64,000 nucleotides of DNA from Kiloniellales bacterium (GCA_041617155.1 JBFJPL010000003.1:19189-83188), one strand, 5' to 3'. Counted from the first letter of the stretch, positions 2,748 to 62,580 are shown. The notes: a model not told the origin generated them from the sequence alone. Program-made: numbers and translations.

Positions 2748-3569
2748 CTACCTGAAGAGCTGCAGCACCGCCTGCTCGCTCTGGCCGGCGAAGGCCAGGG
2801 CGCTGATGCCCAGCTGCTGGCGGGTCTGCAGGGCCACCAGGTTGGCGCCCTCCTCGGTAATGTCGGCCAGGGTCAGCTTGTCGGCGCCGGCTTCGAGCAC
2901 GTTGACGTAGCTTTCGTTGAAGTCGAGCCGGGTCTGCAGCAGCGCGATGTTGGAGCCCAGCGTCTGGGCCTCGCCGCTGAGCGTTTCGATGGCGCTGGTG
3001 ATCTCGGCCAGGGCGGCGGTGATCACGCTGGCCAGGCTGAAGTTGGCCGCCGAGGTCAGGGCGAGCCCCGTGCTGCCCGCCCGGACGTCGATCGAATCGA
3101 TGTTGAGCACGCTCGTGGTATCTGTGCTGAACGACACCTCGAGGGTCTCGCCGGTGCCGTTCACCAGGTTCAGGCCCTGGTAGTTGGCGTCGCCGGTCAG
3201 GTTGTCGATCTGGGTGCGCAGCTCGTTGTACTGGTCGACCAGGCTGGTCAGCTCGTTGCCGGTCGCGGTCTTGGCGGCGATCGCCAGGCCCTTCATCTGC
3301 TGCACGATGGCGTCGACCGACTCGATAGCTTCCAGCGCCGTGGTGACCGAGGAGATCGACTGGTCGATGCCCTCCTTCTTCTCGTCCATGTCGCGCGCCC
3401 GGTCGCTGATCGCCTTCGATTCGAAGAAGATGCGGGCGTCGTCGATCGGGCTGGCAACCCGGAGCCCGGACGACAGCCGGTTCTGGGTGCGCGAGATCAG
3501 ACGCTCGGTGCTCAACAGCGCGAGCAGGTTCTCGCGCACGGCGGCGGAAAGGGAAATCTCGGAGGCCAT
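2748..3569 (-). CDS. fliC: Flagellin (short alphaproteobacterial type), paralog 1
   Basis: 273 aa. Conserved flagellin N-terminus (NRLSSGLRVASPIDDARIFFE) and C-terminus (LVALQTRQQLGISALAFAGQSEQAVLQLFR), with a Ser/Thr-rich centre. GGAG lies about 10 nt upstream of the ATG. Confidence 0.95.
   Translation of the reverse strand: MASEISLSAAVRENLLALLSTERLISRTQNRLSSGLRVASPIDDARIFFESKAISDRARDMDEKKEGIDQSISSVTTALEAIESVDAIVQQMKGLAIAAKTATGNELTSLVDQYNELRTQIDNLTGDANYQGLNLVNGTGETLEVSFSTDTTSVLNIDSIDVRAGSTGLALTSAANFSLASVITAALAEITSAIETLSGEAQTLGSNIALLQTRLDFNESYVNVLEAGADKLTLADITEEGANLVALQTRQQLGISALAFAGQSEQAVLQLFR
2772..2812. repeat. 41-nt stretch identical between the 3' ends of the two flagellin genes (partner copy at 3866-3906)
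   Basis: ctgctcgctctggccggcgaaggccagggcgctgatgccca is present at both positions. The surrounding roughly 130 nt differ at only scattered sites. Confidence 0.9.
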
Positions 3570-3628
3570 CGTCCCGTCTCCATACTGGAAGGGTTGCTAC
3601 GAACGGTCTTGTTCTTCGATGGCCTGGT

Positions 3629-3644
3629 TGCAATCGCTGTACCA
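3629..3644 (-). promoter_or_regulatory. sigma54-type -24/-12 promoter of flagellin 1
   Basis: The minus strand reads TGGTACAGCGATTGCA against consensus TGGCAC-N5-TTGCW, with correct GG-N10-GC spacing. It lies about 60 nt upstream of ATG 3569. Confidence 0.7.
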
Positions 3645-3841: not shown

Positions 3842-4663
3842 CTATCGGAACAGCGCCAACACCGACTGCTCGCTCTGGCCGGCGAAGGCCAGGGCGCTGA
3901 TGCCCAACTGCTGGCGAGTCTGCAATGCCACCAGGTTGGCGCCTTCCTCGGTGATGTCGGCCAAGGTCAGCTTGCCGGCGCCTTCCTCGAGAACGTTGAC
4001 GTAGTTCACGGTGAAGTCGAGGCGGGTCTGTAACAAGGCCACGTTCGAACCGATCTCCTGGCCCTCGCCTTCGAGGGTCTCGACCGCGGCATCGAGTTCC
4101 ACGATCGCCGCATCGATGTTCGAGGTGAGGCTGAAGTTCGCCGCCGAGGTGATGTCGAGGCCGGTCGTGTCGGTGGTCAGGTCGACCGAATCGATGGCCA
4201 GCTGGCTCGAGGTCAGGTTGCTGAACTCGACGGTCAGCGTCTCGCCGGTGCCGTTGACCAGGTTGAGGCCCTGGAAGGTGGCGTCGGCCGCCAGGTTGTC
4301 GATCTGGGTCAACAGCTCGTTGTACTGCGAGACCAGCGATGCCAGCTCGGTGCCGGTCGCCGATTTGGCGGCGATCGCCAGACCCTTGGCCTGACGGACG
4401 ACCGAGTCGATCGTCTCGACCGCCTCGAGGGCGGCGCTGACCGAAGAGATCGCCTGATCGATGCCGCTCTTCTTTTCGTCGAGCGCGCTGGCCCGGTCGC
4501 TGAGCGACTTGGCCTCGAAGAAGACACGCGCATCGTCGACCGGGCTCGCGATGCGCAGGCCGGACGACAGACGGTTGTTGGTGCGGTTGATCAGGTCGCT
4601 GGTGTTGCCCAGCGCGAGCACGCTGGCGCGTGCGGCTGCGGAAAGGGTGATTTCACTTGCCAT
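3842..4663 (-). CDS. fliC: Flagellin, paralog 2
   Basis: 273 aa, colinear with paralog 1 without indels. Same N and C termini (NRLSSGLRIASPVDDARVFFE ... ALAFAGQSEQSVLALFR). GGAG lies upstream of the ATG. Confidence 0.95.
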   Translation of the reverse strand: MASEITLSAAARASVLALGNTSDLINRTNNRLSSGLRIASPVDDARVFFEAKSLSDRASALDEKKSGIDQAISSVSAALEAVETIDSVVRQAKGLAIAAKSATGTELASLVSQYNELLTQIDNLAADATFQGLNLVNGTGETLTVEFSNLTSSQLAIDSVDLTTDTTGLDITSAANFSLTSNIDAAIVELDAAVETLEGEGQEIGSNVALLQTRLDFTVNYVNVLEEGAGKLTLADITEEGANLVALQTRQQLGISALAFAGQSEQSVLALFR

Positions 4664-4736
4664 TCTGGATCTCCATTCTGAAGCGTTATGTCATGGACCT
4701 TCTGGTCCCCGGGCCGTTCTGACCCACCCCTTCAGA

Positions 4737-4752
4737 CGCAATGGCCGTGCCA
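4737..4752 (-). promoter_or_regulatory. sigma54-type -24/-12 promoter of flagellin 2
   Basis: The minus strand reads TGGCACGGCCATTGCG, a near-perfect match with correct spacing. It lies about 75 nt upstream of ATG 4663. Confidence 0.8.
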
Positions 4753-4917: not shown

Positions 4918-5751
4918 TCAGGCGAAGAGGTTGAGCACCGAGCCCGGTTCGACTTCCCGGGGCAGGAGCGTGCTCTCGGCCAGCGAGTCGGTGAGCGCCT
5001 GGGCGGCTTCGAAGGCGAAGGATATATTGGTCAGGATCTGCGCGGTGCGGTCGCGCAGCGCCTGGATCTCGTCGATCTGCTTCTTGCGCTCGGCGATCTC
5101 GATGTCGTCGATCTTGAGCTTGGCCTGGTCCAGGCTGCGGTCCACGGTTTTGATCAGGTTGACCGACAGCGTGTTGTTGATTTCGATGATCGCGAGCGAT
5201 CCGTCGAGGTCGCTCCTGACGGCGTCGATCGCATCCTGCGCGGCCTGAACGTCCGCCGCCGAGGCGAAGTCGTTGGTGACGATGGCCTCGATCGCCGCCA
5301 GGCCGTCGGCCTTGGTCGCCGCCAGCCCGTCCGGCGCGCCCAAGCGGCCGGGGGTGGCGCTCAGCAGCTTGTCCAGCGACTGCAGCACCTCGGCCCGCTT
5401 GCTGTCGAACTCGGCCACGGTCGTGGGATCGGCTAGCGCGCGCAGCTCATCGAGCTGATTCTGCAGGTCCTTCACGGTCAGCCGGTTGGTCTTGACCGTG
5501 GCGCTATAGGCTTTGACCTCCTCGAGTTCGCGTTCCAGGCGGCTTGCCTTGACCCGCAGCAAGGCGGTCTTGCCCTGCCCGAAGTCGGACTCCTGGAATT
5601 CCGCGATCTTCGCATCGAGGCGGGCCAGCTCGACGTTCTGGGCGATGTTGAACTGCAGCTCGAAGTTCGGGCGCGCCGCCGCCTGCGCCAGCCGCACCAG
5701 GGAGGTGGCGATGCTGTTGACGATGGTGTTATTGGTCGGAAACGTCAGCAT
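4918..5751 (-). CDS. Hypothetical coiled-coil protein in the flagellin/hook-associated-protein operon (unknown function)
   Basis: 277 aa, Ala/Leu/Asp/Glu-rich heptad-like sequence with no TM or signal peptide. Sits between flgL (78 nt upstream) and the flagellin-2 control region. The C-terminus ...EPGSVLNLFA resembles the flagellin ends ...SVLALFR / AVLQLFR. I recognise no family. Confidence 0.7.
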   Translation of the reverse strand: MLTFPTNNTIVNSIATSLVRLAQAAARPNFELQFNIAQNVELARLDAKIAEFQESDFGQGKTALLRVKASRLERELEEVKAYSATVKTNRLTVKDLQNQLDELRALADPTTVAEFDSKRAEVLQSLDKLLSATPGRLGAPDGLAATKADGLAAIEAIVTNDFASAADVQAAQDAIDAVRSDLDGSLAIIEINNTLSVNLIKTVDRSLDQAKLKIDDIEIAERKKQIDEIQALRDRTAQILTNISFAFEAAQALTDSLAESTLLPREVEPGSVLNLFA

Positions 5752-17078: not shown

Positions 17079-18080
17079 ATGGCTGAACCAGAGGCGGCGA
17101 CGGACAAAGACGCCGGTGGCTCGACCAAGATCCTCAACCAGGCCGAGATCGACAGCCTGCTCGGCGGCCACGACGGCCTGGACGCGCGTTCGGGTATCGC
17201 GGCGATCGTCGATTCGGCGCTCGTCTCCTACGAGCGCCTGCCCATGCTCGAGGTCGTATTCGACCGCCTCGTGCGCATGATGTCGACCTCGCTGCGCAAC
17301 TTCACGTCCGACAACGTCGAGGTCCACCTGGAGTCGATCTCCTCCTCGCGCTTCGGCGACTACCTCGATTCGATTCCTCTGCCCGCCATGCTGACGGTGT
17401 TCAAGGCGGAGGAATGGGACAACTTCGGCCTCATGGCGGTCGACTCCTCGCTGATCTATTCGATTGTCGACGTTCTGTTGGGCGGCCGGCGCGGCTCCGC
17501 CGCCGTACGCATGGAAGGCCGGCCCTACACCACGATCGAGCGCAACCTGGTCGAGCGCATGGTGCACGTCGTCCTGGCCGACCTATCGGCCGCTTTCGAC
17601 CCCTTGTCGCCGGTCACCTTCCGTTTCGAGCGGCTGGAATCCAACCCGCGCTTTGCCACCATTGCTCGGCCGGCCAACGCCACCGTCGTCGCCCAGCTGC
17701 GGGTCGAGATGGAGGATCGTGGCGGCCGCTTCGAGCTGATGCTGCCCTACGCCACCCTGGAGCCGGTCCGCGAGCTCTTGCTGCAGATGTTCATCGGCGA
17801 GAAGTTCGGCCATGACTCCATTTGGGAAAGCCATCTGACCACCGAGCTGTGGCAGACCGAGCTGCCGATCCAGGCGGTGCTCGACGAAGTCGAGGTGCAC
17901 TTGGGCGAAGTCATCGGCTGGACCGAAGGCAGCCGCCTCGAACTCAACTGCGGCCCGAATTCGAAGGTCGAGCTGCGGTGCGGCGACATCGCCATGTTCG
18001 AGGGCCAAATGGGACGAAAGGGATCGAACATCGCAGTGCGGGTCGCCGGCAAGCTGACCGGCAACGGGGAGTCCACCTGA
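17079..18080 (+). CDS. fliM: Flagellar motor switch protein FliM
   Basis: 333 aa. It has the N-terminal CheY-P-binding-type motif ILNQAEIDSLLG and central FliM core similarity (LEVVFDRLVRMMSTSLRNF...). Confidence 0.9.
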   Translation: MAEPEAATDKDAGGSTKILNQAEIDSLLGGHDGLDARSGIAAIVDSALVSYERLPMLEVVFDRLVRMMSTSLRNFTSDNVEVHLESISSSRFGDYLDSIPLPAMLTVFKAEEWDNFGLMAVDSSLIYSIVDVLLGGRRGSAAVRMEGRPYTTIERNLVERMVHVVLADLSAAFDPLSPVTFRFERLESNPRFATIARPANATVVAQLRVEMEDRGGRFELMLPYATLEPVRELLLQMFIGEKFGHDSIWESHLTTELWQTELPIQAVLDEVEVHLGEVIGWTEGSRLELNCGPNSKVELRCGDIAMFEGQMGRKGSNIAVRVAGKLTGNGEST

Positions 18081-18592
18081 TGGATCTGTTGCCGTTCGAA
18101 CACTGGAGCCTATTGGCCGACGCGGTTCTCGCGGTCCTCCTGGTCGCGACCATCGCCTATGCCGCGATACTCGAGCGCAAGCTCTCGGGCCTGCGCGCCG
18201 CGAAGCAGGAAATGGCGGAGCTGGTCGGCCGCTTCACCGAGGCGACCAAGCGCGCGGAGAACGGCTTGGCCGAGATCAGGCAGACCGCGGAGGAAACCGG
18301 CCGAACCCTGCAGCAGGCCCTGGAGAAGGGCAACAGCTTGGCCGACGACCTGGTTTTTCTGGTTGAACGCGGCGATGCCGTTGCCGGCCGGCTCGAGCGG
18401 GGCGCCGCAAAGGGCCGTGGCCGAGCGACCGCCGAGCCACCGCCGGCCGGCCCACGGTCGGTCGCCAAAGGCCCCGGGGGAACCGCTGCAAAGGCGCCCG
18501 CTCCGGCGGCCGCCGAGGACGACGCCACATCGAGCCGCAAGCGCACGCCGGAGCAGTCCGCTCTGATGGCGGCCCTGCGGGCCATGCGCTAG
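18080..18592 (+). CDS. Hypothetical membrane-anchored coiled-coil protein with an Ala/Pro-rich tail (flagellar cluster, unknown function)
   Basis: 170 aa from ATG 18080, which overlaps the fliM stop (TGATG). It has an N-terminal TM (WSLLADAVLAVLLVATIAYAAIL), then a helical segment and a low-complexity tail. The 86 codons upstream of it in track ORF 17822..18592 overlap fliM out of frame. Confidence 0.7.
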   Translation: MDLLPFEHWSLLADAVLAVLLVATIAYAAILERKLSGLRAAKQEMAELVGRFTEATKRAENGLAEIRQTAEETGRTLQQALEKGNSLADDLVFLVERGDAVAGRLERGAAKGRGRATAEPPPAGPRSVAKGPGGTAAKAPAPAAAEDDATSSRKRTPEQSALMAALRAMR

Positions 18593-18610
18593 GAGCCCGA
18601 GGAAGCGGAC

Positions 18611-19252
18611 ATGAAGCTACGCCTTCTGCCTTTGCTGATCTTTGCGGCCGGCACCGGAGTCCTGTTCCACCTGGGCGATTTGTGGCGGGGCTTCGGCCCC
18701 TTGGCCCAGGTCGCGGCGGCGGAGGGCGAAGCGAAGCCCGCCAAGGCGGCGAAAGCCGGCGCTCGCTACGAGCCAGCCGGGCCGAAAACGGCCGGCGAGA
18801 TGTCGCCTCGGACCGCCACCTTGGCCAGCGACCCCTTCAATCTGACCGATGAAGAGATCGACCTGCTGCAGAAACTGGCCGAGCGCCGGTCAGAACTCGA
18901 GAGCCGTGCGGCGGAGTTGGAACAGCGCCGTACTCTCTTGGAAGCGGCCGAGCGCCGCATCGACGAGAAGATCGGCGAGCTGGAGGCGATCCGGAAAAAC
19001 ATCGAGGGCCTGCTGGTGCGCCACGACGAGCAGGAAGAGGCGCAACTCAACAGCCTGGTCAAGATCTACGAGAGCATGAAACCCAAGGATGCCGCGCGGA
19101 TTTTCGAAGAGCTCGACATGGTGGTGCTGCTCGATGTGATCGAGCGCATGAAGGAACGCAAGACCGCGCCGATCCTGGCCAAGATGAACCCGCGGCGCGC
19201 CAAGGCGATCACCTTGGAGCTGGCTCAGCGCCGCGGCCTGCCGGGCTCCTAG
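18611..19252 (+). CDS. MotE/FlbB-like protein (MgtE-N-like helical domain; putative periplasmic stator chaperone)
   Basis: 213 aa with a signal/TM segment, a coiled coil (EIDLLQKLAERRSELESRAAELEQRRTLLEAAERRIDEKIGELEAIRKNIE), then LVKIYESMKPKDAARIFEELDMVVLLDVIERMKERKTAPILAKMNPRRAKAIT. This pattern matches COG3334/MotE-type proteins. Confidence 0.55.
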   Translation: MKLRLLPLLIFAAGTGVLFHLGDLWRGFGPLAQVAAAEGEAKPAKAAKAGARYEPAGPKTAGEMSPRTATLASDPFNLTDEEIDLLQKLAERRSELESRAAELEQRRTLLEAAERRIDEKIGELEAIRKNIEGLLVRHDEQEEAQLNSLVKIYESMKPKDAARIFEELDMVVLLDVIERMKERKTAPILAKMNPRRAKAITLELAQRRGLPGS

Positions 19253-19257
19253 TCCGG

Positions 19258-19947
19258 ATGGAGCGCGCCGGGCAAACCTCACCGGCCGAGCGTGGCGACC
19301 CGAACATCGTCGCCTTGCTCGGGCTCAAACTGCTGCTTTTGGGGTTTTTCATTCTGTTGAACGCGCTGTCCCACTATGAGGAGGACCGGACTCGACGGGT
19401 TCTGCAAAGCGTCGACCAGGCCTTCAACGGCCGCATCGAAGCCTTGAAAAGCGAGGCTGAACATTCCGCTGCCCTGGGGCCGCTGAACGGAACCGAGGCG
19501 ATGATCGACTCGGTGGGGGCGCTCTTTACTTCGCTGATACCGGCGGTTGAGCGAGAGCTATCGGCCGCCGGCACGCGCCTGCGCCTGGAGCTGCCGGTCG
19601 CTGCCCTGTTCCGACAGGACAGCGTCGCCCTGCAGTCGGGTCGCGGCGTGCTGATGAAACGCTTCGCCGAAGCCTTGACCCAAAACGGCCGCGGCCGACT
19701 CAACTATGAGGTCGAGCTCTTGCACGGCATAAGGCGCGAGGCGATCTCGGACCTGACCGAAGCCGGCGCCGACTCGCTGGAAGTTCGGCGCATCGCCGCC
19801 CTGGTCCTTGCCCTGACCAAACGCGGCGTGCCCGCGGACAAGCTGTCCGTCGGCGTCATCCCCGGCCGGCCCGGCAAGGTCCAGATGGTGGTGCAAACCT
19901 ACCAGCGGGCGGGCCCGGCATTCGACTACGGGGAGCTGGCGCGATGA
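19258..19947 (+). CDS. Degenerate MotB/OmpA-like paralog (single TM, no conserved plug-region Asp)
   Basis: 229 aa. The TM segment IVALLGLKLLLLGFFILLNALS aligns with the MotB-like AWMLTFTDLVALMLTFFVMLFAMS of the next gene but has K where that has D. The C-terminal LRLELPVAALFRQDSVALQSGRGVL...SLEVRRIAALVLALTKRGVPADKLSV parallels the OmpA-like VLIALPGDLLFAPGSTELATTGRQAL...ELSLARALRVAQVLRDSGY. The GHxD motif is replaced by LLHG. Confidence 0.6.
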   Translation: MERAGQTSPAERGDPNIVALLGLKLLLLGFFILLNALSHYEEDRTRRVLQSVDQAFNGRIEALKSEAEHSAALGPLNGTEAMIDSVGALFTSLIPAVERELSAAGTRLRLELPVAALFRQDSVALQSGRGVLMKRFAEALTQNGRGRLNYEVELLHGIRREAISDLTEAGADSLEVRRIAALVLALTKRGVPADKLSVGVIPGRPGKVQMVVQTYQRAGPAFDYGELAR

Positions 19948-20735
19948 CGGAGCCAGGGAGTGTCGAAGCGGACGGCGCCGAACCGGGGGCCGCCAATCGC
20001 GCTTGGTGGCTCGCGCTATCGAACCATGCAGCGGCCGCGCAGCGTGAAGCGCCTTTGGCGCGCGGCTCTGCCTGGATGCTCACCTTTACCGACCTGGTCG
20101 CCCTGATGCTGACCTTCTTCGTCATGCTCTTCGCCATGTCCAAGGTGGAAAAGCGCGAATGGGAGAACCTGACCGACGCTCTGGCGCCGAAGCTGAACGT
20201 CGTGAGCAAGCTGTCCATCGCCCTGCCGACAGAGTCGCGCGATGTCGACGCGGTCGAGACCTTGCCGTCGGTCGATTTGAACTATCTGGCGGCCTTGTTG
20301 AAACAGGACATGGCCGATGATCCCCTGCTCGGCCTGGGCATCCTGCGCCGCTTGGAGCGGCGTGTCCTGATCGCGCTGCCGGGCGATCTGCTCTTTGCGC
20401 CCGGATCGACCGAGCTCGCCACGACCGGGCGGCAAGCCTTGACCGGCTTCGTCGGCCTGCTGCGCCACGTGAACAACCGGATCGAAGTCATGGGCCACGC
20501 CGATCCGCGCCAACCGATTGCCGGCTTTGCCTCCAATTGGGAACTCTCCCTGGCGCGGGCCCTGCGGGTCGCCCAGGTGTTGCGCGATTCCGGGTACCGG
20601 GGCCAGGTGGTCGCACGCGGCTTCGGCCATTCACGCTTCGAGTCGCTTTCGCCGCGGCTCCGGCCGGCGCAGCGCTTGACCTTGGGACGCCGGGTCGAAC
20701 TGGTGATACACGACGACGCCGGAGAAGCACGCTGA
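19944..20735 (+). CDS. motB: MotB-like flagellar stator protein (OmpA-family C-terminal domain)
   Basis: 263 aa. It has the MotB N-terminal signature (WMLTFTDLVALMLTFFVMLFAMS) and an OmpA-like domain (LFAPGSTELATTGRQALTGFVGLLRHVNNRIEVMGHADPRQ...NWELSLARALRVAQVL). ATGA start/stop overlaps occur on both sides. Confidence 0.8.
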   Translation: MTEPGSVEADGAEPGAANRAWWLALSNHAAAAQREAPLARGSAWMLTFTDLVALMLTFFVMLFAMSKVEKREWENLTDALAPKLNVVSKLSIALPTESRDVDAVETLPSVDLNYLAALLKQDMADDPLLGLGILRRLERRVLIALPGDLLFAPGSTELATTGRQALTGFVGLLRHVNNRIEVMGHADPRQPIAGFASNWELSLARALRVAQVLRDSGYRGQVVARGFGHSRFESLSPRLRPAQRLTLGRRVELVIHDDAGEAR

Positions 20736-23700
20736 TGGCTCGGCGGCAGGCAAAGATCGCCGCGCTTCTCGGCGGGTTTCTGGTCGCGGCGCTGCCGGTC
20801 CCGGCGGCCGTGGCCGAACCGCCGGACCAAACGGCGCCCGCGCTCAACCTGCGCAGCGGCGAACACGAAGGTTTCAGCCGCCTGGTGTTCGATTGGGATG
20901 CGCCGGTGACCTACAGCATCGAGGAGACGCCGAGCGGTGCCACGGTGTCTTTCGACCGGCCGGCCCGACTCGACCTGAAGAGCTACCGAAAAGATCCCTC
21001 GCCGGGCATTCTGGACCTCACCTTGGGCCCAGGCGACGACGGCCTCACGGTTGCCCTGCGGTTGCCCGAGGGCGCCAACCTGCGCCATTTTCTCAGCGGC
21101 CCCAAGGTGGTCATCGACGTGCTCGCCCCGGGCGCCGGCGCGGCCGAAGCGCAGGCCGATCAGGAAAGCGCCGCCGCCGGGGCGGCGCCCGAATCGCTCG
21201 GCAATTCCATCCTGAGCGATGCCGTGGAAGCCGCCGTGGCCCTGACCGGTGACACGCGGGCGAACCGCGCCGGCACCCGCCCGACCCGGCTCGGCGTTGC
21301 ACCCAAGGCCGCCGAACCGAAAGCGCCGCCGCGCCGCGCCGCGCCGCGTCCGGCGACCTCAAGCAAGGCATCGAGACGAAAACTGGTCGTCACCTACGAG
21401 CGGCCGCCCCTGCCGGCGGCAATGCCGGTGCCCGGTATGACGGCGCCGCGCTACCGCCCTCTGGCGATCCGCCTGAAGGGCATCGCCGGCGTAGCCGCCG
21501 CCGCCTTTCGCCGTGGCCAGCACCTATGGCTGGTGTTCGATTTGCCGGCCCGGGTCAACATCGCCAGGCAGATTCAGCGGATCGCGCCAGAACTGGCGCC
21601 GGTGTTGCAGCTCGAGCGACCAGACATCGTGGCCCTGCGCTTGACTGTGCCGCTGGGTGTGGCGCCGAAGCTGCGGCGCGACGGCACCGACTGGCTGGTC
21701 GACCTGCGGCCGCGCCTGATCCGGCCGGAAAAGCCGGCGACCCTCGACCTTCGCGCCGGCCATGACGGCCCTCGGCTTGTCTTTCCGGTTACCGGCGCGG
21801 GCCGGCTGATCCAGCTGGACGACCCGGATATGGGCGACCGGGTTCACGTGCTGCCGGTTTCGCTTGCCGATTTCGGCCTGGCAACGGCCCGCGATTTCCC
21901 ACAGTTCCAGGCGCTCGCCACCTATCAAGGACTGGCCATCGTGCCGCGGTCCGACAGGCTGTGGATCACGCTCGACAAGGACGCCTTGAAGATCACCTCG
22001 TCGGCCGGCCTTCTGGTCACCGCGGGATTGGACACCGACGCCGAGCCGAACGAGGAGGAGACGGTCGCGGGCAAGCGACGGCTGTTCGACCTGGCGGCCT
22101 GGCGCGAGGTCGACGGCGACGACTTCGAAACCAATCGAAAACTGCTGCAGCGCGCGATTATCGCGCCGGGCGACGCCCGGAGTCTCGATCTCGCGCGGCT
22201 CCGGCTGGCACGATTCTTTTTCGCCCATGGCTTGGCCACCGAGACCTTGTCGGTGATCAGGCTGATGGCGCGTGAGCGCGGGCGTTTCGCCGCCGATCCG
22301 GAGATGATCCTGCTCGAGGGCGCCGCTGCTTTCCTGGCGCAGGACTTTCACGCCGCAGCGGCCAGCCTTTCCCACCCGGCCCTGGAGGGCGAGGCCGAGG
22401 CCGTGATCTGGCGCGCCGCCATGTCGGCGGCGGCCCAGGACTGGCCCTATGCCGCGGAGCTGTTCGAGCAAGGCAAGGCGACGATCCAGGACTACCCGCG
22501 CGCGGTGCGCGTCCGGCTGCATCTCTTGGCGGCCGAGGCGCGCCTGGCGATCGGCGACACCGGCGGCGCCAGCTTCTACCTGAAACAGGCGCTTGAGGCT
22601 CAATCGACCGATTTCGAGCGGGCCCAGATCGATTTCCTCGAAGGCCGGCGCCTGCTGGCAGACCAGCGTCCGGAGCGCGCGCTGCCCCTGTGGCGGCGTG
22701 TCGCCGCCTCGACGCACCGGCCGTCCCAGGCAAGGGCGCGCCTGGCCCTGGTCAACCAAGGCCTGAAAGCGGGCACGCTCGAACCGGCCTCCGCGATCGC
22801 CGAACTGGAGCGTCTGCGCTTTGTCTGGCGGGGCGACGAGTTCGAGGCGGCGCTGCTTGAACGCCTGGGCCGGCTCTACGCCGACGCGGGCGACTACCGG
22901 GATGCCCTGGTCGCCCTGCGTCAGGCGGCTTCCCACTTCCCCGGTTCGGTCCGCGCCGAAGCGGCGGCGCGCCATATGCGCAAGCTCTTCGCCTCGCTTT
23001 ACCTGGGCGACAAGCGCGCGAGCCTGTCGCCGCTGGCGGCCTTGGCGCTATACCGCGAGTTCGAGGAACTGACGCCTGCCGCGCAGGACGGCAACCGCCT
23101 GATCGACAACCTGGTCGACCGGCTGGTCGAGATCGATCTTCTGGGCCAGGCGGCGGAACTGCTGGAAGACCAGATCGCCCGCCGCCTGGCCGGCGAAAAG
23201 CGGGCGCGGGCCGGCGCGCGTCTGGCGCTGGTCCGGCTGCTCGACCGCCAGCCTGGGCACGCGCTCGAGGCGCTGAACTCGAGCGCCGCCAAGAAACTGC
23301 CCAGCGCCGTCGAGCGCCGGCGCCGCCACCTCAGGGCGCGCGCGCTTGCCGGGCTGCACCGCGGGCGCGACGGGCTGGCCGTGCTGGCCGGCGACGAGAG
23401 CGAGGATGCACGCAAGCTGCGCGCGGAGATCCTGTGGCAGCTGCGCGACTGGCCGGCGGCGGCCGTCGCGCTGGCCCGGCTGATCCCGAGAGATCCGCCC
23501 AAGGAGCGAGCGCTCGATGCCGTCGAAACCCAGACCGTGATCGACCTGGCGACCGCCTATACCCTGGCAGGCGACCGCCGGGCGCTCGACGATCTGGCGC
23601 GGCGCTTCGGCAAGGCCATGGCCGAGAGCGGCAAGGCCGACAGCTTTACCCTGCTGACCAGCGACTTCGGCAAGGCCAACTTGGCCGCGGTGGCCGACGA

Positions 23701-23785
23701 GCTGGCCGGGGTCGAACGGATCCAAGCCTTCATCGCGAGCTATCGCGCGCGGGTCCGCAAGGACGGCCTCAGCAACCTGAACTAG
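20735..23785 (+). CDS. Large secreted AMIN-like plus TPR-repeat protein (flagellar cluster, unknown function)
   Basis: 1016 aa from ATG 20735, which overlaps the motB stop (TGATG). It has a signal peptide (AALLGGFLVAALPVPAAVA), an AMIN-like segment (LNLRSGEHEGFSRLVFDWDAPVTYSIEETPSGATVSFDRPARLDL...VVIDV), an Ala/Pro-rich linker, and a long C-terminal helical-repeat region rich in A/L/R. The track ORF start 20537 is an out-of-frame overlap with motB. Confidence 0.75.
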   Translation: MARRQAKIAALLGGFLVAALPVPAAVAEPPDQTAPALNLRSGEHEGFSRLVFDWDAPVTYSIEETPSGATVSFDRPARLDLKSYRKDPSPGILDLTLGPGDDGLTVALRLPEGANLRHFLSGPKVVIDVLAPGAGAAEAQADQESAAAGAAPESLGNSILSDAVEAAVALTGDTRANRAGTRPTRLGVAPKAAEPKAPPRRAAPRPATSSKASRRKLVVTYERPPLPAAMPVPGMTAPRYRPLAIRLKGIAGVAAAAFRRGQHLWLVFDLPARVNIARQIQRIAPELAPVLQLERPDIVALRLTVPLGVAPKLRRDGTDWLVDLRPRLIRPEKPATLDLRAGHDGPRLVFPVTGAGRLIQLDDPDMGDRVHVLPVSLADFGLATARDFPQFQALATYQGLAIVPRSDRLWITLDKDALKITSSAGLLVTAGLDTDAEPNEEETVAGKRRLFDLAAWREVDGDDFETNRKLLQRAIIAPGDARSLDLARLRLARFFFAHGLATETLSVIRLMARERGRFAADPEMILLEGAAAFLAQDFHAAAASLSHPALEGEAEAVIWRAAMSAAAQDWPYAAELFEQGKATIQDYPRAVRVRLHLLAAEARLAIGDTGGASFYLKQALEAQSTDFERAQIDFLEGRRLLADQRPERALPLWRRVAASTHRPSQARARLALVNQGLKAGTLEPASAIAELERLRFVWRGDEFEAALLERLGRLYADAGDYRDALVALRQAASHFPGSVRAEAAARHMRKLFASLYLGDKRASLSPLAALALYREFEELTPAAQDGNRLIDNLVDRLVEIDLLGQAAELLEDQIARRLAGEKRARAGARLALVRLLDRQPGHALEALNSSAAKKLPSAVERRRRHLRARALAGLHRGRDGLAVLAGDESEDARKLRAEILWQLRDWPAAAVALARLIPRDPPKERALDAVETQTVIDLATAYTLAGDRRALDDLARRFGKAMAESGKADSFTLLTSDFGKANLAAVADELAGVERIQAFIASYRARVRKDGLSNLN

Positions 23786-23801: not shown

Positions 23802-24542
23802 CTAGGTGCCGTAGCTTTGCACCAGGGAGCCGGCGACCAGGTACCAGCCGTCGACCAGCACGAAGAAGATCAGCTTGAAGGGCAGGGAGATCATGATCGG
23901 CGGCAGCATCATCATGCCCATGGACATGAGGATCGAGGCCACCACCATGTCGATCACCAGGAACGGCAGGAACAAAAGGAAACCGATCTCGAAGGCGCGC
24001 TTCAGCTCGCTGATCATGAAGGCCGGGATGAGCGCACGCATCGGCGTCTCCTCCGGCGCCGATATCGCGTCGATCTCGGCCATGTCCATGAACAGCTTGA
24101 GGTCCTGCTCGCGCACGTGGGCCAGCATGAAACTGCGCACCGGACCGGTCGCGAGGTCGAGCGCCTGCATCTCGGTCACGTCCTCGGCCACCAGGGGTGC
24201 GATGGCCTCATCATAGATCAGTTCCAGAGTCGGCATCATGACGAAGGCCGTGAGGAACAGCGCAAGGCTGATCAACACCGAATTGGGCGGCGTTTGCTGG
24301 ATGCCGAGCGCGCTGCGCAGAAACGACAGGACAACGACGATCCGGGTGAACGAGGTCATCATCACCAGGATCGACGGCGCCAGGCTGAGGATGGTGATAA
24401 GTGCGACCAGCTGGATGATCCGGCCGGTTGCCGAGCCGCCTTCGGTGCCGAGGTCCAGATTGAGGCTTTGCGCCGCCGCCGGCTCGGCGCCCGCCAGGAG
24501 CGCGGCGATCAGCCCGCCGAGCAGCCAGAGGAGAGGTCTCAT
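23802..24542 (-). CDS. fliP: Flagellar export apparatus protein FliP
   Basis: 246 aa. LAPSILVMMTSFTRIVVVLSFLRSALGIQQTPPNSVLISLALFLTAFVM is the FliP signature. Confidence 0.95.
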   Translation of the reverse strand: MRPLLWLLGGLIAALLAGAEPAAAQSLNLDLGTEGGSATGRIIQLVALITILSLAPSILVMMTSFTRIVVVLSFLRSALGIQQTPPNSVLISLALFLTAFVMMPTLELIYDEAIAPLVAEDVTEMQALDLATGPVRSFMLAHVREQDLKLFMDMAEIDAISAPEETPMRALIPAFMISELKRAFEIGFLLFLPFLVIDMVVASILMSMGMMMLPPIMISLPFKLIFFVLVDGWYLVAGSLVQSYGT

Positions 24543-24856
24543 CGGGCTTCGCTCCCCGCCGGCAGCGGCTTCTCGTCGCTCAGGGCTTGCCGCCCGGCGG
24601 TCATGCGCTCCAGGTGCAGGTCAGCGCCGCCGCCCAGCAGCACCAAGTGTTCGGTGTCGTCGCGGCGCAGCAACACCAGGCGGCGGCGCGCGTCGAGCGG
24701 CATCACCTCGACCACCGAAAGGCGCCGCGCCTTGCCGGTGTTGGGCGTCAGCCGGCCGGCCAGCCCGAAGCGCCGCGCCGCCCAGGCCAGGCAGCCGATC
24801 AGGCCGAGCACGAAGATCAGGGCCAGCAGGAACTTGAAGTAGACGGCGAAGTCCAT
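24539..24856 (-). CDS. fliO: Flagellar export protein FliO
   Basis: 105 aa with a single N-terminal TM, then RRLSVVEVMPLDARRRLVLLRRDDTEHLVLLGG, which is typical of FliO. It overlaps fliP by 4 nt. Confidence 0.8.
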   Translation of the reverse strand: MDFAVYFKFLLALIFVLGLIGCLAWAARRFGLAGRLTPNTGKARRLSVVEVMPLDARRRLVLLRRDDTEHLVLLGGGADLHLERMTAGRQALSDEKPLPAGSEAR

Positions 24857-24865
24857 CGCGCGCCG

Positions 24866-25141
24866 TCAGGGCTGATTCTCTGGCTGCCCGCCGGCCTGGT
24901 TCAGCAGTTCGAGGACGGCGGCGGCCAGGCGGTCGAGCGCGTCGCGCAGATCCCACAGCTTGGGCGCCAGTGCCACGGCCTGCTCCCGCGGCTGGTTTTC
25001 GAGGTTCGTGCAGATATCTCGGACCCGCTGGCCGAAGCCGGACAGCTCCACCAGGCGGCCGGCGCTGATCTCGGCGTGGGCCGCGGCAACCGCCTGGCCG
25101 AGCCGGTCGATCTCCGCCGCGATCGCGGTGGTGGGGGTCAC
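24866..25141 (-). CDS. Hypothetical small helical protein (flagellar export operon)
   Basis: 91 aa. The GTG start overlaps the stop of the upstream FlhB-C-like gene (GTGA). It sits 9 nt upstream of fliO. I recognise no family. Confidence 0.55.
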   Translation of the reverse strand: MTPTTAIAAEIDRLGQAVAAAHAEISAGRLVELSGFGQRVRDICTNLENQPREQAVALAPKLWDLRDALDRLAAAVLELLNQAGGQPENQP

Positions 25142-25479
25142 GGCGCGGCCTCGCCGGCGGCGGCCTGAGAGGCGCGATAGACGTAGGTCAGGATCTCGGC
25201 CACGGCGGCCAAGGCGGGCAGCGGCACTTCGCTGTCGATCTCCACCGCCGCCAGAATCTCCGCCAGATCGGCGTCGGTCCGCACCTTGACGCCCCGGTCG
25301 AAGGCGATCGCGAGTATCTGCTCGGCCAGGCGGCCTTGCCCCTTGGCGACGACGCGCGGCCCCTGGGCGGCGCCGGGGTCCTGCTGCAGGGCGATGGCCA
25401 GCGGACGGGGCCCGCCGGAATCTGGTGTCGAAGAGATCGGCTTGTCGGCCACGGCTGGCACCCGGTCCTCGGCTGTCAT
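25138..25479 (-). CDS. Stand-alone FlhB C-terminal-domain-like protein (EscU/YscU/FlhB-CC family, COG2257-like)
   Basis: 113 aa. PLAIALQQDPGAAQGPRVVAKGQGRLAEQILAIAFDRGVKVRTDADLAEILAAVEIDSEVPLPALAAVAEILTYVYRA aligns with the post-NPTH part of the bona fide FlhB in this window (HFAVALAYELGSAGAPKVTAKGADTLALRMRELAEEYAVPVVENPPLARALYGSVELDQEIPPEHYKAVAEIIGYVMRL). Confidence 0.8.
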   Translation of the reverse strand: MTAEDRVPAVADKPISSTPDSGGPRPLAIALQQDPGAAQGPRVVAKGQGRLAEQILAIAFDRGVKVRTDADLAEILAAVEIDSEVPLPALAAVAEILTYVYRASQAAAGEAAP

Positions 25480-25609: not shown

Positions 25610-25846
25610 TCAGTCGGTCGGTTTCTTGCCCTTCTCCTGCTCGGTCACCTGACCTGCCTGCTGGGTCGCGGCGGCCGCCCGGTTTTCGGCCTGTATGCGC
25701 TCGTGGATCTCGCGACGCAGCACGGTGGCGGTCGGCGGAAAGGTAAAGCCCAGTTTGATCGACTTGCCCCGAATGTCGATGACGGTGACTTCGATGTCGT
25801 CGTTTATGATGACTGACTCGCCGATCTTGCGTGTCAGATAGAGCAT
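25610..25846 (-). CDS. csrA: Carbon storage regulator / translational repressor CsrA homolog with a C-terminal extension
   Basis: 78 aa from ATG 25846. MLYLTRKIGESVIINDDIEVTVIDIRGKSIKLGFTFPPTATVLRREIHERI matches the CsrA fold sequence (MLILTRKxGESIxIGDDIxVTVLxIxGxQVRLGIxAP). The 22 upstream codons of the track ORF are not CsrA-like. Confidence 0.85.
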   Translation of the reverse strand: MLYLTRKIGESVIINDDIEVTVIDIRGKSIKLGFTFPPTATVLRREIHERIQAENRAAAATQQAGQVTEQEKGKKPTD

Positions 25847-26019: not shown

Positions 26020-26430
26020 ATGGACGGCAAGCTGAACATCTTCGAAGCGATCGCCCGGCGCATGGTCTGGCTCGGCCAGCGGCAACAGGTCCTGGCCCAG
26101 AACATCGCCAATTCGGACACGCCCGACTACGTTCCGCAGGACCTCAAGCACGGTCCATTCCAGCGCGTGCTGGCGAAGAGCGTCGCGCTCGTGCGCCCGG
26201 CCGCGACCCACGCCAAACACATGGCGGGCCCGGCCGGCCTGGCCGCCCGCCCGGCCGAGAGCGCGGATCAGCGCGAGCGTTTCGAGACCGCGCCATCGGG
26301 CAACGCGGTGGTGCTCGACGAGCAGCTGATCAAGGTCGCCGAGACCCAGATGGACTATCAGACCATGACCAACCTGTACCGCAAGCACGCCCAGATGATC
26401 CGCGCGGCGCTCGGCCGCGGCGGCAACTAG
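26020..26430 (+). CDS. flgB: Flagellar proximal rod protein FlgB
   Basis: 136 aa. It carries RQQVLAQNIANSDTPDYVPQDL and C-terminal LDEQLIKVAETQMDYQTMTNLYRKHAQMIRAAL. Confidence 0.9.
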   Translation: MDGKLNIFEAIARRMVWLGQRQQVLAQNIANSDTPDYVPQDLKHGPFQRVLAKSVALVRPAATHAKHMAGPAGLAARPAESADQRERFETAPSGNAVVLDEQLIKVAETQMDYQTMTNLYRKHAQMIRAALGRGGN

Positions 26431-26457
26431 ACGGTCTAGCTAGGAGGAGGACAAGCT

Positions 26458-26868
26458 GTGTCGGATTTGGTCAAGGCGCTGAACATCTCGGCGGCCGGGC
26501 TCGAGGCCCAGGGCACGCGGCTTCGGGTGATCGCGGAAAACGTCGCCAACGCCGACTCGGCGGCGCAAAGCCCGGGTGCCGAGCCCTACCGCCGCAAGGT
26601 CGTCACCTTCAGCAACGCGCTCGACCGCGAGCTCGGGGTCGCGCGGGTCGAGGTCAAGGGCATCACCCTGGACCGCAGCGATTTCGGACGCCGTTTCGAG
26701 CCCGGCCACCCGGCGGCCGACCCGCAGGGCTACATCCGCACGCCGAACGTCAACAGCCTGCTCGAGGTGGCCGATATGCGCGAGGCGCAGCGCAGCTACG
26801 AGGCCAACCTCAAGGCGATCCAGTCGGCCCGCACCATGTTGCAACAGACCATCGACATTCTGCGCTGA
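26458..26868 (+). CDS. flgC: Flagellar proximal rod protein FlgC
   Basis: 136 aa with a GTG start preceded by AGGAGGAGG. It carries LRVIAENVANADS...PYRRKVVTF...PGHPAADPQGYIRTPNVNSLLEVADMREAQRSYEANL. Confidence 0.93.
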   Translation: MSDLVKALNISAAGLEAQGTRLRVIAENVANADSAAQSPGAEPYRRKVVTFSNALDRELGVARVEVKGITLDRSDFGRRFEPGHPAADPQGYIRTPNVNSLLEVADMREAQRSYEANLKAIQSARTMLQQTIDILR

Positions 26869-26956
26869 CCCGCGCCCGGACCGCCACAAGGGCGGCCGGT
26901 TTCACGCCAGAACGGCACACCCCGAGAGCGTACCGCACCCGCAAGGAGCATAGCTC

Positions 26957-27268
26957 ATGACCGTCAATCTCGCCGATGCCGTATCCGCCTATCAGCGCCT
27001 GGTCCGAAGCGAGGCGGAGACCGGATTGGAGGCGCGCGACGGCGCGCGCGACGGCGATTTCGCCGGCGCCCTGCGCGCGGCCACCGAGACCGCCGTCGAG
27101 TCGCTGCGCACGGGCGAGACGGAATCGCTGAAGGCGGCCGCCGGAAAGGCCGACATCAACGAGGTGGTGCTGGCCGTCAGCCAGGCGGAGATCACACTGC
27201 AGACCGTGGTCGCGGTGCGCGATCGGGTGATCCAGGCCTATCAGGAGATCCTGCGCATGCCGATCTAG
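26957..27268 (+). CDS. fliE: Flagellar hook-basal body complex protein FliE
   Basis: 103 aa. DINEVVLAVSQAEITLQTVVAVRDRVIQAYQEILRMPI is the FliE C-terminus. Confidence 0.9.
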   Translation: MTVNLADAVSAYQRLVRSEAETGLEARDGARDGDFAGALRAATETAVESLRTGETESLKAAAGKADINEVVLAVSQAEITLQTVVAVRDRVIQAYQEILRMPI

Positions 27269-27330
27269 GCCAGGAGGCGGCCCGCCGGCACCAGCGCAGT
27301 TCCCCAATTCACTGCAGAAGCTCAAGTACC

Positions 27331-27597
27331 ATGAACCCTACCGACGTCCTCGAGGTCTCGCGCCAGGCGGTCATCGTGATGCTGAAGATCGGCTCGCCGA
27401 TCCTTGGTCTGGCACTGGCGGTCGGCCTCGTCGTGTCGCTGTTCCAGGCGCTGACCCAGATCCAGGAGATGACCTTGTCCTTCGTGCCGAAGATCATGGT
27501 GATCTTCGTCTCGCTGCTGGTGCTGCTGCCGTTCATGATGTCCACGCTGGTGACCTTCGGTCATAGCCTGATGGACCGGATCGTCGCCCTCGGTTAG
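27331..27597 (+). CDS. fliQ: Flagellar export apparatus protein FliQ
   Basis: 88 aa with two TM segments. It carries LGLALAVGLVVSLFQALTQIQEMTLSFVPKI. Confidence 0.93.
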   Translation: MNPTDVLEVSRQAVIVMLKIGSPILGLALAVGLVVSLFQALTQIQEMTLSFVPKIMVIFVSLLVLLPFMMSTLVTFGHSLMDRIVALG

Positions 27598-27609
27598 GAC
27601 AGGGCAAGC

Positions 27610-28368
27610 ATGCTCGACGCCCTGCTGCCGAAGGAGCTCTTCGCGGTCCTGCTCGTTTTCGTTCGAATCGGCGCCGCCATGATGCTGCTGCCCGGCGTCG
27701 GCGAGCCCTATGTCTCGCCGCGGGTCCGCTTGCTTCTTGCGCTGATGATCGCGCTGCTGCTGACCCCGGTGTTGTCCGGCACGCTGCCGGCCCTGCCCGA
27801 TAGCCTGGCGCTGCTTGCCCTGCTGGTCTTGGGCGAGGTCGTGATCGGGCTCTTCATCGGCACGATCACCCGTTTCTTCATGGCGGCGCTGACCACCGCG
27901 GGCATGATGATCGCCTACTCCACGGCGCTCGCCAACGCGCTGACCAACGATCCAAGCGCGGCCCAGCAGGGTTCGATCTCCGGGTCATTTCTGACGCTGG
28001 TCGCCTTGCTGACCATCTTTGCACTCAACCTCCATCACCTGATGCTCCAGGCGCTGGTCGAGAGCTACCACCTGTTCGTGCCCGGCCAGGCGCTGCCGCT
28101 CGGCGATTTCTCCGACATGGTGGCGCGCGTGATGGCCCGGACCTTCCTGCTGTCGTTTCAGCTCGCGGCGCCGTTCGTTGCGGTGGCGATGATCTTCTTC
28201 CTGGGCATCGGCCTGCTGGCGCGGCTCATGCCCCAGGTGCAGATCTTCTTTGTCGCCATGCCGGTACAGATCGCCCTGGGCCTGGTCGTCCTGTCGCTGG
28301 CCGTGCCCTTCATCATCCGATGGTTTGCCGGCGGTCTGGAACAGACCGTGCTGAGCTTGGGCGGGTAG
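27610..28368 (+). CDS. fliR: Flagellar export apparatus protein FliR
   Basis: 252 aa, polytopic. FVRIGAAMMLLPGVGEPYVSPRVRL... is typical of FliR, and the gene lies between fliQ and flhB. Confidence 0.9.
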   Translation: MLDALLPKELFAVLLVFVRIGAAMMLLPGVGEPYVSPRVRLLLALMIALLLTPVLSGTLPALPDSLALLALLVLGEVVIGLFIGTITRFFMAALTTAGMMIAYSTALANALTNDPSAAQQGSISGSFLTLVALLTIFALNLHHLMLQALVESYHLFVPGQALPLGDFSDMVARVMARTFLLSFQLAAPFVAVAMIFFLGIGLLARLMPQVQIFFVAMPVQIALGLVVLSLAVPFIIRWFAGGLEQTVLSLGG

Positions 28369-28378
28369 ACCTTAAGCC

Positions 28379-29485
28379 ATGGCAGACGAACGTCCCGACG
28401 AGTCGCAAAAGACCGAGGAGCCGACCCAAAAGCGCCTGCTGGAGGCGCAGCAGAAGGGCCAGGTGGCCAAGTCCCAGGAGGTCGGCCACTGGTTCATGAT
28501 CCTGGCCTTCGCGATCATGGTCGGATTCCTGGCGCCCGGTGTCGCCCGGGACATCGCCGATGCGCTTTACGGCTTGGTCGCGCGGCCCCATGCGATCCGG
28601 GTCGACGGCGCCGGCATCCAGGACCTGCTCGGCGAACTGACGGCCAACCTGGGCCTGGCGCTCGCCGTCCTGGTCCTGCTGGCCATGGTCGCCGCTCTGG
28701 CATCGGGCATGCTGCAGACCGGGTTCATCCTGACCACCGAACCGATCAAGCCCAAACTGGAACGGATCTCGCCGGCCAGCGGATTGAATCGGATGTTCTC
28801 CGCGCGCGCCCTGGTCGAGTTCCTGAAAGGCGTTGCAAAGCTTTCGATCGTCGGCTGCGTCATCGCCTTGTTGCTGTGGCCGGAGCGGCGCCTGATCGCC
28901 GACCTGGTGACCATGGACCTGGTCCAGTTCCTGGCGGTGATCCAATCTCTGGCTTTCCGGGTCCTGCTTGCCGTGTTGGCCGTCATGACGGTGATTGCCG
29001 GACTGGATTTCCTGTTCCAGAAGCAGCAGCACGCCAAACAGATGCGCATGTCGAAGCAGGAAGTGAAGGACGAGTTCAAGCAGACCGAAGGCGATCCCAT
29101 GGTCAAGGCTCGGCTGCGGCAGATTCGCATGGAGCGCGCCCGGCAACGTATGATGGCCGCCGTGCCGGAGGCCGATGTGGTGATCGCCAATCCGACCCAC
29201 TTCGCGGTCGCGCTTGCTTACGAACTCGGCTCCGCCGGGGCGCCGAAGGTGACGGCCAAAGGCGCCGATACGCTTGCCCTGCGCATGCGCGAGCTGGCCG
29301 AGGAGTACGCTGTGCCGGTGGTCGAAAACCCGCCCCTGGCGCGCGCGCTCTACGGCTCGGTCGAGCTCGATCAGGAGATCCCGCCCGAACATTATAAGGC
29401 GGTCGCCGAAATCATCGGGTATGTCATGCGCCTAAAGGGTAAGCTACCCCAGCAGCGGGCCGGCTTGCAGCGGGGCCGTGAGTGA
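28379..29485 (+). CDS. flhB: Flagellar export switch protein FlhB
   Basis: 368 aa. It starts ESQKTEEPTQKRLLEAQQKGQVAKSQEV, has 4 TM segments, and carries the autocleavage motif VVIANPTHFAVAL. Confidence 0.95.
   Translation: MADERPDESQKTEEPTQKRLLEAQQKGQVAKSQEVGHWFMILAFAIMVGFLAPGVARDIADALYGLVARPHAIRVDGAGIQDLLGELTANLGLALAVLVLLAMVAALASGMLQTGFILTTEPIKPKLERISPASGLNRMFSARALVEFLKGVAKLSIVGCVIALLLWPERRLIADLVTMDLVQFLAVIQSLAFRVLLAVLAVMTVIAGLDFLFQKQQHAKQMRMSKQEVKDEFKQTEGDPMVKARLRQIRMERARQRMMAAVPEADVVIANPTHFAVALAYELGSAGAPKVTAKGADTLALRMRELAEEYAVPVVENPPLARALYGSVELDQEIPPEHYKAVAEIIGYVMRLKGKLPQQRAGLQRGRE

Positions 29486-29566: not shown

Positions 29567-32050
<2,484 letters not shown>

Positions 32051-62504: not shown

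Positions 62505-62580
<76 letters not shown>

Follow-up and report, generated by a model that had tools for sequence, protein, structure and literature searches.

A flagellum-linked, FliW-type CsrA in a Kiloniellales bacterium that has probably lost its FliW partner

The csrA gene within the flagellar island of this Kiloniellales bacterium is, as judged from its sequence, a genuine CsrA of the long, FliW-type, flagellum-linked lineage. On balance, we consider it probable that the gene represents an ancestral flagellar CsrA whose partner FliW has most likely disappeared and whose link to it has decayed or been rewired. According to this proposal, csrA in the 64-kb stretch of DNA analyzed here (the window) would be the local orthologue of an ancestral FliW-type gene, which in a Rhodospirillales/Kiloniellales-type clade heads the same-strand string csrA-flhB(C-domain)-orf91-fliO-fliP. 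The clade would have inherited a partner switch of CsrA, FliW, and flagellin, with fliW retained after flgK-flgL in sister lineages, whose sigma54-type flagellin leaders combine a hairpin exposing GGA in its loop with a GGA-containing Shine-Dalgarno (SD) region, as in Bacillus hag. In the subclade with CsrA proteins of 78 amino acids, fliW would most likely have been lost and its slot taken by a flagellin-like gene; following FliW loss, residue N55 of CsrA would be unconstrained, the C-terminal tail remodeled, and the canonical leader hairpin gone. CsrA is predicted from its core residues to stay a competent RNA binder that may still dampen translation of the flagellin genes flaA and flaB through an A-N-GGA that overlaps the SD and another GGA close by. 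FliW probably does not antagonize it any more, and its range of targets is probably wider.

Translation of the open reading frame yields a protein of 78 amino acids, MLYLTRKIGESVIINDDIEVTVIDIRGKSIKLGFTFPPTATVLRREIHERIQAENRAAAATQQAGQVTEQEKGKKPTD, with 17 residues more than E. coli CsrA (61 amino acids), in agreement with an earlier note on this DNA that had described a 78-amino acid CsrA with a C-terminal extension. The protein matches Pfam CsrA (PF02599) at 6.3e-20 and 71.3 bits (cut-off 27), and it scores 76.1 bits against TIGR00202 (cut-off 70.1) and 73.9 bits against NF002469 (cut-off 73), placing it above the curated cut-offs for the CsrA/RsmA family with the whole beta-sheet core covered. 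Its top match among solved structures is 5dmb_D, a Geobacillus CsrA crystallized with FliW, and the alignment extends through the helix IQAEN(R)AAA, including I51 and N55. It is from these family scores and from the alignment to chain D of 5DMB through the helix that we assign the protein to the FliW-type CsrAs, as the earlier note had done. In an alignment with CsrA of E. coli and of B. subtilis, M1, L2, L4, R6, R44, E46, I51, and E54 are invariant; L2, L4, R6, R44, E46, and the I47 region are established RNA-binding residues of CsrA. The window CsrA possesses the AENRAAAA helix and the C-terminal extension with V/I51 and N55 expected of the CsrA side of a partner switch, and its C-terminal tail is remodeled (TQQAGQVTEQEKGKKPTD). 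The tail of CsrAs confirmed to coexist with FliW reads ...EENRAAAAG(S/G)(D/E)ALA(E/K)AL... in proteins of 92-96 amino acids, and that of the subclade of the window CsrA reads ...AENRAAAATQQAGQVTEQE..., ending at 78 amino acids.

Coding open reading frames of the window were chosen by third-position GC and then scanned with Pfam and NCBIfam. They define a flagellar island of ~2.7-29.5 kb (Table 1), inside which csrA is flanked by flgB and a small FlhB C-domain gene, confirming the position given to it previously. The product of the latter gene matches Pfam Bac_export_2 (6e-15) at profile positions 258-335 only, as well as TIGR00789 (flhB_rel), and presumably resembles H. pylori FlhX and B. subtilis YlqH; a full-length flhB is present in addition. 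Beyond the hybrid histidine kinase gene lie recA, alaS, and housekeeping genes. According to the profile scans, fliD, fliS, flgE, fliF, and other flagellar genes are absent from the 64-kb window.

Table 1. Features of the flagellar island and its surroundings, in window coordinates
Feature	Position	Strand	Remarks
TPR-GT41 glycosyltransferase	715-2706	-	directly after flagellin genes
flaB (flagellin)	2748..3569	-	273 aa, 72% identical to flaA
flaB upstream region	3570..3644	-	sigma54-type promoter and leader of ~49 nt
flaA (flagellin)	3842..4663	-	273 aa
flaA upstream region	4664..4752	-	sigma54-type promoter and leader of ~64 nt
orf277	4918..5751	-	predicted flagellin-like, divergent (AF2 model and PDB matches)
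flgL	5830-7020	-	
flgK	7053-9107	-	
flgN-like gene, rod-binding flgJ, flgI, flaG		-	next in island
fliX, dksA		+	
flgH, flgA, flgG, flgF		-	
fliL, fliM, DUF6468 gene, FlbB-like gene, two MotB-like genes, 1082-aa TPR protein		+	
fliP	23802-24542	-	Pfam; same gene string as csrA
fliO	24539-24856	-	Pfam; same gene string as csrA
orf91	24866..25141	-	small, family-less, helical by eye; between flhB-C paralogue and fliO
FlhB C-terminal-domain-only paralogue	25138..25479	-	113 aa; second gene of csrA-led string
csrA	25610..25846	-	78 aa; Pfam CsrA and NCBIfam csrA equivalog matches
flgB-flgC-fliE-fliQ-fliR-flhB	26020..29485	+	string divergent from csrA
flhB, full length	28379-29485	+	last gene of the preceding string
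Hybrid histidine kinase	29567-32050	+	PAS-HisKA-HATPase-REC

Several further features of the window deserve mention. The genes between fliM and fliP (17822-23785, plus strand) form an unusual block of accessory motor genes encoding the DUF6468 protein, the FlbB-like protein, which is a weak match to the spirochaete collar protein FlbB, the two MotB-like proteins, and the 1082-amino acid TPR protein; most of this block is found in many relatives whose loci extend that far. An orphan open reading frame of 132 amino acids (54373-54771, plus strand) matches Flg_bbr_C at 9e-6 and is located between padR and leuA, 25 kb off the island. A lone tRNA gene (62505-62577, plus strand) is the only Rfam match of the window. 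In relatives, the TPR-GT41 gene is followed by nonulosonic-acid genes of the NeuB/NeuC/CMP-transferase type (L094, 13087-20831). The presence of TPR-GT41 next to the flagellins, together with these nonulosonic-acid genes in relatives, implies that the flagellins are glycosylated, as with Caulobacter FlmG.

The position of csrA is widely conserved. At least 110 species encode a relative of the window CsrA in a genome collection holding one genome per species. We fetched 80 species loci and established their gene order by BLAST with the window proteins. The arrangement recA-HK-flhB-fliRQ-fliE-flgCB alongside csrA-flhB(C-domain)-orf91-fliO-fliP was recovered in ~70 of them, the flhB-C gene being found by BLAST in ~50 and orf91 in <10, and metagenome contigs of relatives have the same csrA gene order. 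Nearly all 80 loci are labeled alphaproteobacterial, with Kiloniellales, Pelagibius, Algihabitans, Fodinicurvata, Rhodovibrio, Dongiaceae, Inquilinus, Kiloniella, Denitrobaculum, and others among the labels; two metagenome-assembled genomes (MAGs) are labeled Udaeobacter and Gemmatimonas. The earlier note had raised the question of whether csrA occurs in the flagellar clusters of related genomes, which this synteny answers in the affirmative, and it had called CsrA-type control of flagellin unusual for an alphaproteobacterium, which is overstated in view of the number of species with a relative and of syntenic loci. Nearly all 80 loci have a hybrid histidine kinase gene flanked by recA and flhB, and this gene stays beside csrA even where the flagellar genes are gone.

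Five of the loci (L060, L071, L077, L079, and L086) have lost the flagellar genes that flank csrA on either side, and csrA is retained between the hybrid kinase/recA genes and dksA; its product has K55 or another residue different from N. The retention of csrA where the flanking flagellar genes have disappeared suggests that, in relatives, the gene has functions beyond the flagellum. It also favors an alternative explanation in which CsrA is a general post-transcriptional regulator, its position in the cluster is a phylogenetic relic, the flagellin mRNAs are not among its targets, and the conserved flaA leader serves a different factor or an SD-sequestering structure. We regard this explanation as improbable, given that csrA heads the export-gene string in ~70 species and that flagellin leaders of sister lineages contain clear CsrA sites.

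FlaF and FlbT are the textbook agents of flagellin translation control in Alphaproteobacteria, and work on CsrA-FliW control of flagellin has concerned Firmicutes, Campylobacterota, spirochaetes, and Geobacter. A comparative study listed 15 groups as likely using FliW, and Alphaproteobacteria were not among them (PMC4682653); our search of the literature yielded no experiments on CsrA of these alphaproteobacteria. A small FliW hidden Markov model (HMM) matched one open reading frame in a Kiloniellales MAG (locus L029) with the hallmark NLRAPIVLD. With this FliW as a query, 29 proteins were obtained, 28 of which have a precomputed PF02623 assignment and some of which are named FliW by JGI. The FliW gene of locus L089 (P0143) shares an 89,751-bp contig with csrA locus L031, and the order there is fliX and then flgI-flgJ-flgN-flgK-flgL-FliW-flagellin-flaG-fliD-fliS-flagellin-fliS. 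The P0146 FliW (L136) follows flgK-flgL on a 343-kb contig of an assembly that also includes csrA locus L007; P0137 likewise follows flgK-flgL, and the same holds in L137-139. In all five of the intact alphaproteobacterial fliW contexts that we examined, fliW is thus located directly after flgK-flgL. The alphaproteobacterial FliWs retain an NLxAP...(R)Q motif, including the Q124 equivalent; this motif holds the equivalents of B. subtilis FliW N108, A111, and Q124, which surround and contact CsrA N55 (bioRxiv 10.1101/2020.07.02.184341). In degraded clusters (L029 and L090), fliW and csrA persist, flgK and flgL are gone, and fliW lies away from flgL. The flagellar cluster of one relative (L007 and L008, 737-9828; L136, 1-1204) is full of transposases, with flhB in three open reading frames, flgC truncated, and csrA and fliW intact, which suggests ongoing pseudogenization.

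The flagellin genes of these FliW-type sister lineages have sigma54-type promoters and leaders that combine GAGACAGGA(U/C)GUCUC, in which GGA occupies the loop, and an SD of the sequence AGGAG. The hairpin, GAGAC-AGGAU-GUCUC, is a CsrA hairpin of the textbook type. The L089 leader carries GAGACAGGAUGUCUC and the L136 leader GAGACAGGACGUCUC; both fold with GGA in the loop and have an AGGAG(G) SD, and six GGA are present in ~100 nt of the L089 leader. Based on the location of fliW after flgK-flgL and on the two-site flagellin leaders in sister lineages, we infer that the clade inherited a CsrA-FliW-flagellin module. The same FliW genes and canonical leader sites make CsrA control of flagellin very plausible for the clade, as the earlier note had proposed; for this genome in particular, the evidence is nondiagnostic.

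In the window, neither Pfam nor NCBIfam recognized FliW, FlaF, or FlbT in any coding-space open reading frame; none of those in the island matches FlaF (PF07309) or FlbT (PF07378), and the slot after flgL holds orf277. A six-frame search of the window with the first FliW HMM, which was made from PDB-derived sequences, had a best E value of 15, and a repeat with an improved HMM, to which 27 alphaproteobacterial FliWs had been added, returned zero matches. Within the 64 kb, the FliW (PF02623) half of the partner-switch system was not found, and the earlier statement that fliW, flaF, and flbT are missing from the window stands.

The slot between flgL and the flagellin genes, which is the fliW position in sister lineages, is filled by orf277 here and in three relatives (L094, L095, and L097). 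The FliW HMM detected no FliW within 10 kb past orf277 in these three; this DNA contains two flagellin genes, TPR-GT41, and nonulosonic-acid synthesis genes. The orf277 protein has no Pfam or NCBIfam family match, and its family consists of 91 clusters, each unnamed or "hypothetical," with flagellin and/or GT41 genes as neighbors where these were identified. Its AlphaFold (AF2) model is all-helical (pLDDT 82), and the best PDB matches of the model are D0/D1 flagellins, for example, Caulobacter FljK (TM ~0.5, probability 1.0), although BLAST found no significant sequence similarity to the neighboring flagellins. Based on the model, orf277 encodes a very divergent flagellin-like protein, a candidate flagellin paralogue with a structural or regulatory role. 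We rejected orf277 as a cryptic FliW because it is all-helical and D0/D1 flagellin-like and has no FliW HMM score. For orf91 and the FlhB-C paralogue as replacements of FliW, we obtained no support; both accompany csrA in FliW-containing lineages too.

Residue 55 provides a second line of evidence. FliW binding requires N55 of CsrA in B. subtilis and C. jejuni, and N55 was reported to be invariant in FliW-encoding species (bioRxiv 10.1101/2020.07.02.184341; PMC7829508). Among the best 120 CsrA homologues, 119 of which were aligned, residue 55 is N in 105; K, Q, or R at this position is confined to the 78-amino acid subclade, in which residues 1-54 are almost invariant, and occurs in 13 of the 16 nearest relatives of the window CsrA. 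In the species loci, residues other than N55 also mark lineages without their flagellar genes. The relatives with K or Q at position 55 were tied to the orf277 arrangement by similar identity profiles rather than by shared contigs, and csrA is located ~20 kb from the flgL slot, compared with the 10-kb flanks available in relatives. The replacement of the slot, the drift at residue 55, the remodeled tail, and the absence of the leader hairpin are the basis on which we propose FliW loss or relaxed selection. Together they point to a decayed CsrA-FliW link rather than an intact checkpoint in the subclade of the window CsrA. Extrapolating from 64 kb, and with fliD, fliS, flgE, and further late genes encoded outside the window, we consider loss of fliW from this genome probable rather than proven.

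The principal alternative, which we judge to be appreciably less likely, is an intact CsrA-FliW-flagellin switch with fliW relocated beyond the 64 kb, perhaps to the neighborhood of fliD and fliS. CsrA would then repress flaA and flaB via the GGA in their SD until FliW is set free by the export of flagellin. The retention of I51, N55, and the AENRAAAA helix by the window CsrA, and of N55 by its two closest relatives as well, counts against loss and agrees with such a switch, as does the absence from the window of late genes, among them fliD, fliS, flgE, and fliF, with which fliW could sit. Moreover, fliW persists away from flgL in the degraded clusters, and each flagellin leader of the window contains two GGA motifs, one of them on the SD. 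Against this, the slot in which fliW resides in every intact context that we examined is otherwise filled here and in relatives, most of the nearest relatives have exchanged N55, and the leaders have no GGA-loop hairpin. Furthermore, the Logan-derived FliW matches that we checked came from sequencing runs other than those containing this organism, a weak negative result, and no FliW-family match has a contig count near the 23 obtained for csrA of this organism or the 25 for its orf277. The underlying protein search relies on a word index, so that divergent members may escape it.

Regarding the flagellin leaders themselves, we identified sigma54-type promoters upstream of flaA (TGGCAC-N5-TTGC, 4738-4752) and flaB (TGGTAC-N5-TTGC, 3630-3644), with transcription starts near 4726 and 3618, respectively, predicted from the usual 12-nt sigma54 spacing. 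The AUGGAGA element to which the earlier note had drawn attention is present at the SD just 5' of both flagellin ATGs (3577-3583 for flaB and 4670-4676 for flaA, minus strand), within a longer block, CUUC(C)AG(A/U)AUGGAGA, that these paralogues have in common. As a CsrA signature, however, the element did not hold up: GGAG is the SD itself, GGA is found at -22 to -4 in 33 of 55 window genes, and ATGGAGA occurs six times in the window against 5.6 expected and is not enriched. We thus rejected GGA in the SD as an uninformative criterion. The flaA leader has one GGA at -45, which falls within a predicted stem, and another at -11 in the SD, 34 nt apart; in the flaB leader, it is located at -12 in the SD and at -5, 7 nt apart. 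Two GGA per leader compare with ~0.7-0.9 expected from the window density of ~0.014 per nt, for which our own Poisson estimate is P ~0.15-0.23.

The earlier note had also pointed to the complementarity of UCUGAAG and CUUCAGA in one flagellin leader, which would amount to a hairpin. Both sequences are present in the DNA (UCUGAAG at 4730-4736), but relative to the sigma54 start predicted near 4726, UCUGAAG occupies positions of approximately -10 to -4 and would precede the transcript. Orthologous leaders have UUGUAAAG or UUGUGAAG in its place, without a compensating change. We therefore rejected this hairpin, whose 5' arm is probably untranscribed and is unconserved, and which is absent from the minimum-energy leader fold. 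In folds computed from the predicted transcription start, the SD GGAG is contained in a short stem with CUUC(A/C), and the upstream GGA of flaA in a stem GGACC/GGUCC. The two leaders fold no better than shuffled sequences (z = -1.2 and -0.3), and neither contains the GGA-loop ACAGGA hairpin, unlike those of L089 and L136. Known RNA families were not detected in the leaders (Rfam, sub-threshold chance matches only).

Binding of CsrA to the flaA and flaB leaders is possible on account of the SD-overlapping A-N-GGA and the second GGA 34 or 7 nt away, and residual CsrA control of flagellin is plausible; nothing in the leader sequence specifically argues for CsrA binding. The general-regulator explanation set out above agrees with the ordinariness of GGA-containing SD regions in the window, with leader GGA in predicted stems rather than loops, with folding not above that of shuffled sequences, and with a flaA leader dominated by CAGAA(N)GG repeats, of which there are four, with GGA in just one. 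Conversely, the SD-overlapping A-N-GGA is kept in all orthologous leaders, including ACGGAGA in L104.

Over the 66 nt that precede the flaA ATG, the window agrees with each of four other organisms at 60-63 of 66 positions. For the three most divergent of the four, leader identity is 61-63 of 66 (92-95%) and flagellin identity is 80-83%; synonymous third positions are 73-86% identical in the four flaA comparisons, and the promoter spacer and upstream DNA are essentially unconserved in two of them. By eye, the CAGAA(N)GG repeats are located at about -58, -41, -17, and -4. The flaA leader thus looks like a constrained regulatory RNA, for CsrA or for a different factor. In its own right, this leader (4664-4729, minus strand) is a candidate for a new cis-regulatory RNA element of sigma54-dependent flagellin genes. 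A further, quite improbable possibility is that CsrA was rewired to another late-assembly checkpoint following FliW loss, for example, titrated by or acting with orf277, which would be a "regulatory flagellin" in the manner of FljJ with CsrA in place of FlbT as its partner, through the nearly invariant 64-nt flaA leader with its four repeats.

Returning to the ancestral, FliW-type CsrA that we propose, its setting combines elements of several known systems. The CsrA-FliW switch of B. subtilis, C. jejuni, Borrelia, Helicobacter, and Geobacter is similar in the C-terminal extension of CsrA with I51/N55, the position of csrA in a flagellar cluster, the FliW-bound Geobacillus CsrA as the closest structure, and, in sister lineages, flgK-flgL-fliW with the GGA-loop hairpin and GGA-containing SD. 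It is dissimilar in that the window has no fliW, a flagellin-like gene in the slot, and leaders without a hairpin-loop site; csrA is not beside fliW or flgL and heads the fliOP export-gene string; the flagellin promoters are of the sigma54 type; and N55 is unconstrained in the nearest relatives. The FlaF/FlbT system of Caulobacter and Rhizobiales, with the regulatory flagellin FljJ, is likewise alphaproteobacterial and shares FliX, sigma54 flagellin genes with short leaders, the presence of more than one flagellin, and a TPR-GT41 glycosyltransferase gene next to them, but the window contains CsrA instead of FlaF and FlbT. Our data suggest that a large Rhodospirillales/Kiloniellales-type group keeps CsrA-FliW in a Caulobacter-like (FliX, sigma54) hierarchy. 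Gammaproteobacterial CsrA/RsmA, which sponge sRNAs (CsrB/C, RsmY/Z) antagonize under the control of BarA-UvrY, resembles the window case in a CsrA apparently without FliW and in K55, which relatives of the window CsrA have as in E. coli. It differs in that the window csrA is a flagellar-cluster gene encoding a C-terminal extension and in that no Csr/Rsm sRNA family was found in the window (Rfam, gathering thresholds). The adjacent hybrid kinase has a PAS-HisKA-HATPase-REC architecture. In Magnetococcus (MO-1/MC-1), the flagellar order is flgKL-fliW-flaG-fliD-fliS-fliS (PMC7175107). This is the same late-gene order as in the FliW-type sisters L089 and L136, in contrast to flgKL-orf277-fla-fla-GT41 in the lineage of the window, where flaG has moved in front of flgI.

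In conclusion, the csrA gene of the window is in itself nothing categorically new. Among its relatives, however, there appears to be a series of three steps: in the first, FliW is present, N55 is fixed, and the leader hairpin is canonical; in the second, the FliW slot is replaced, N55 is drifting, and the leader is remodeled; and in the third, flagella are lost and csrA is kept. This apparent series is so far undescribed and offers a useful handle on how CsrA escapes from FliW control. The transition of CsrA to FliW independence was inferred for Gammaproteobacteria and not observed in progress. The series would make testable how a flagellar checkpoint regulator becomes a FliW-independent, possibly global, one.
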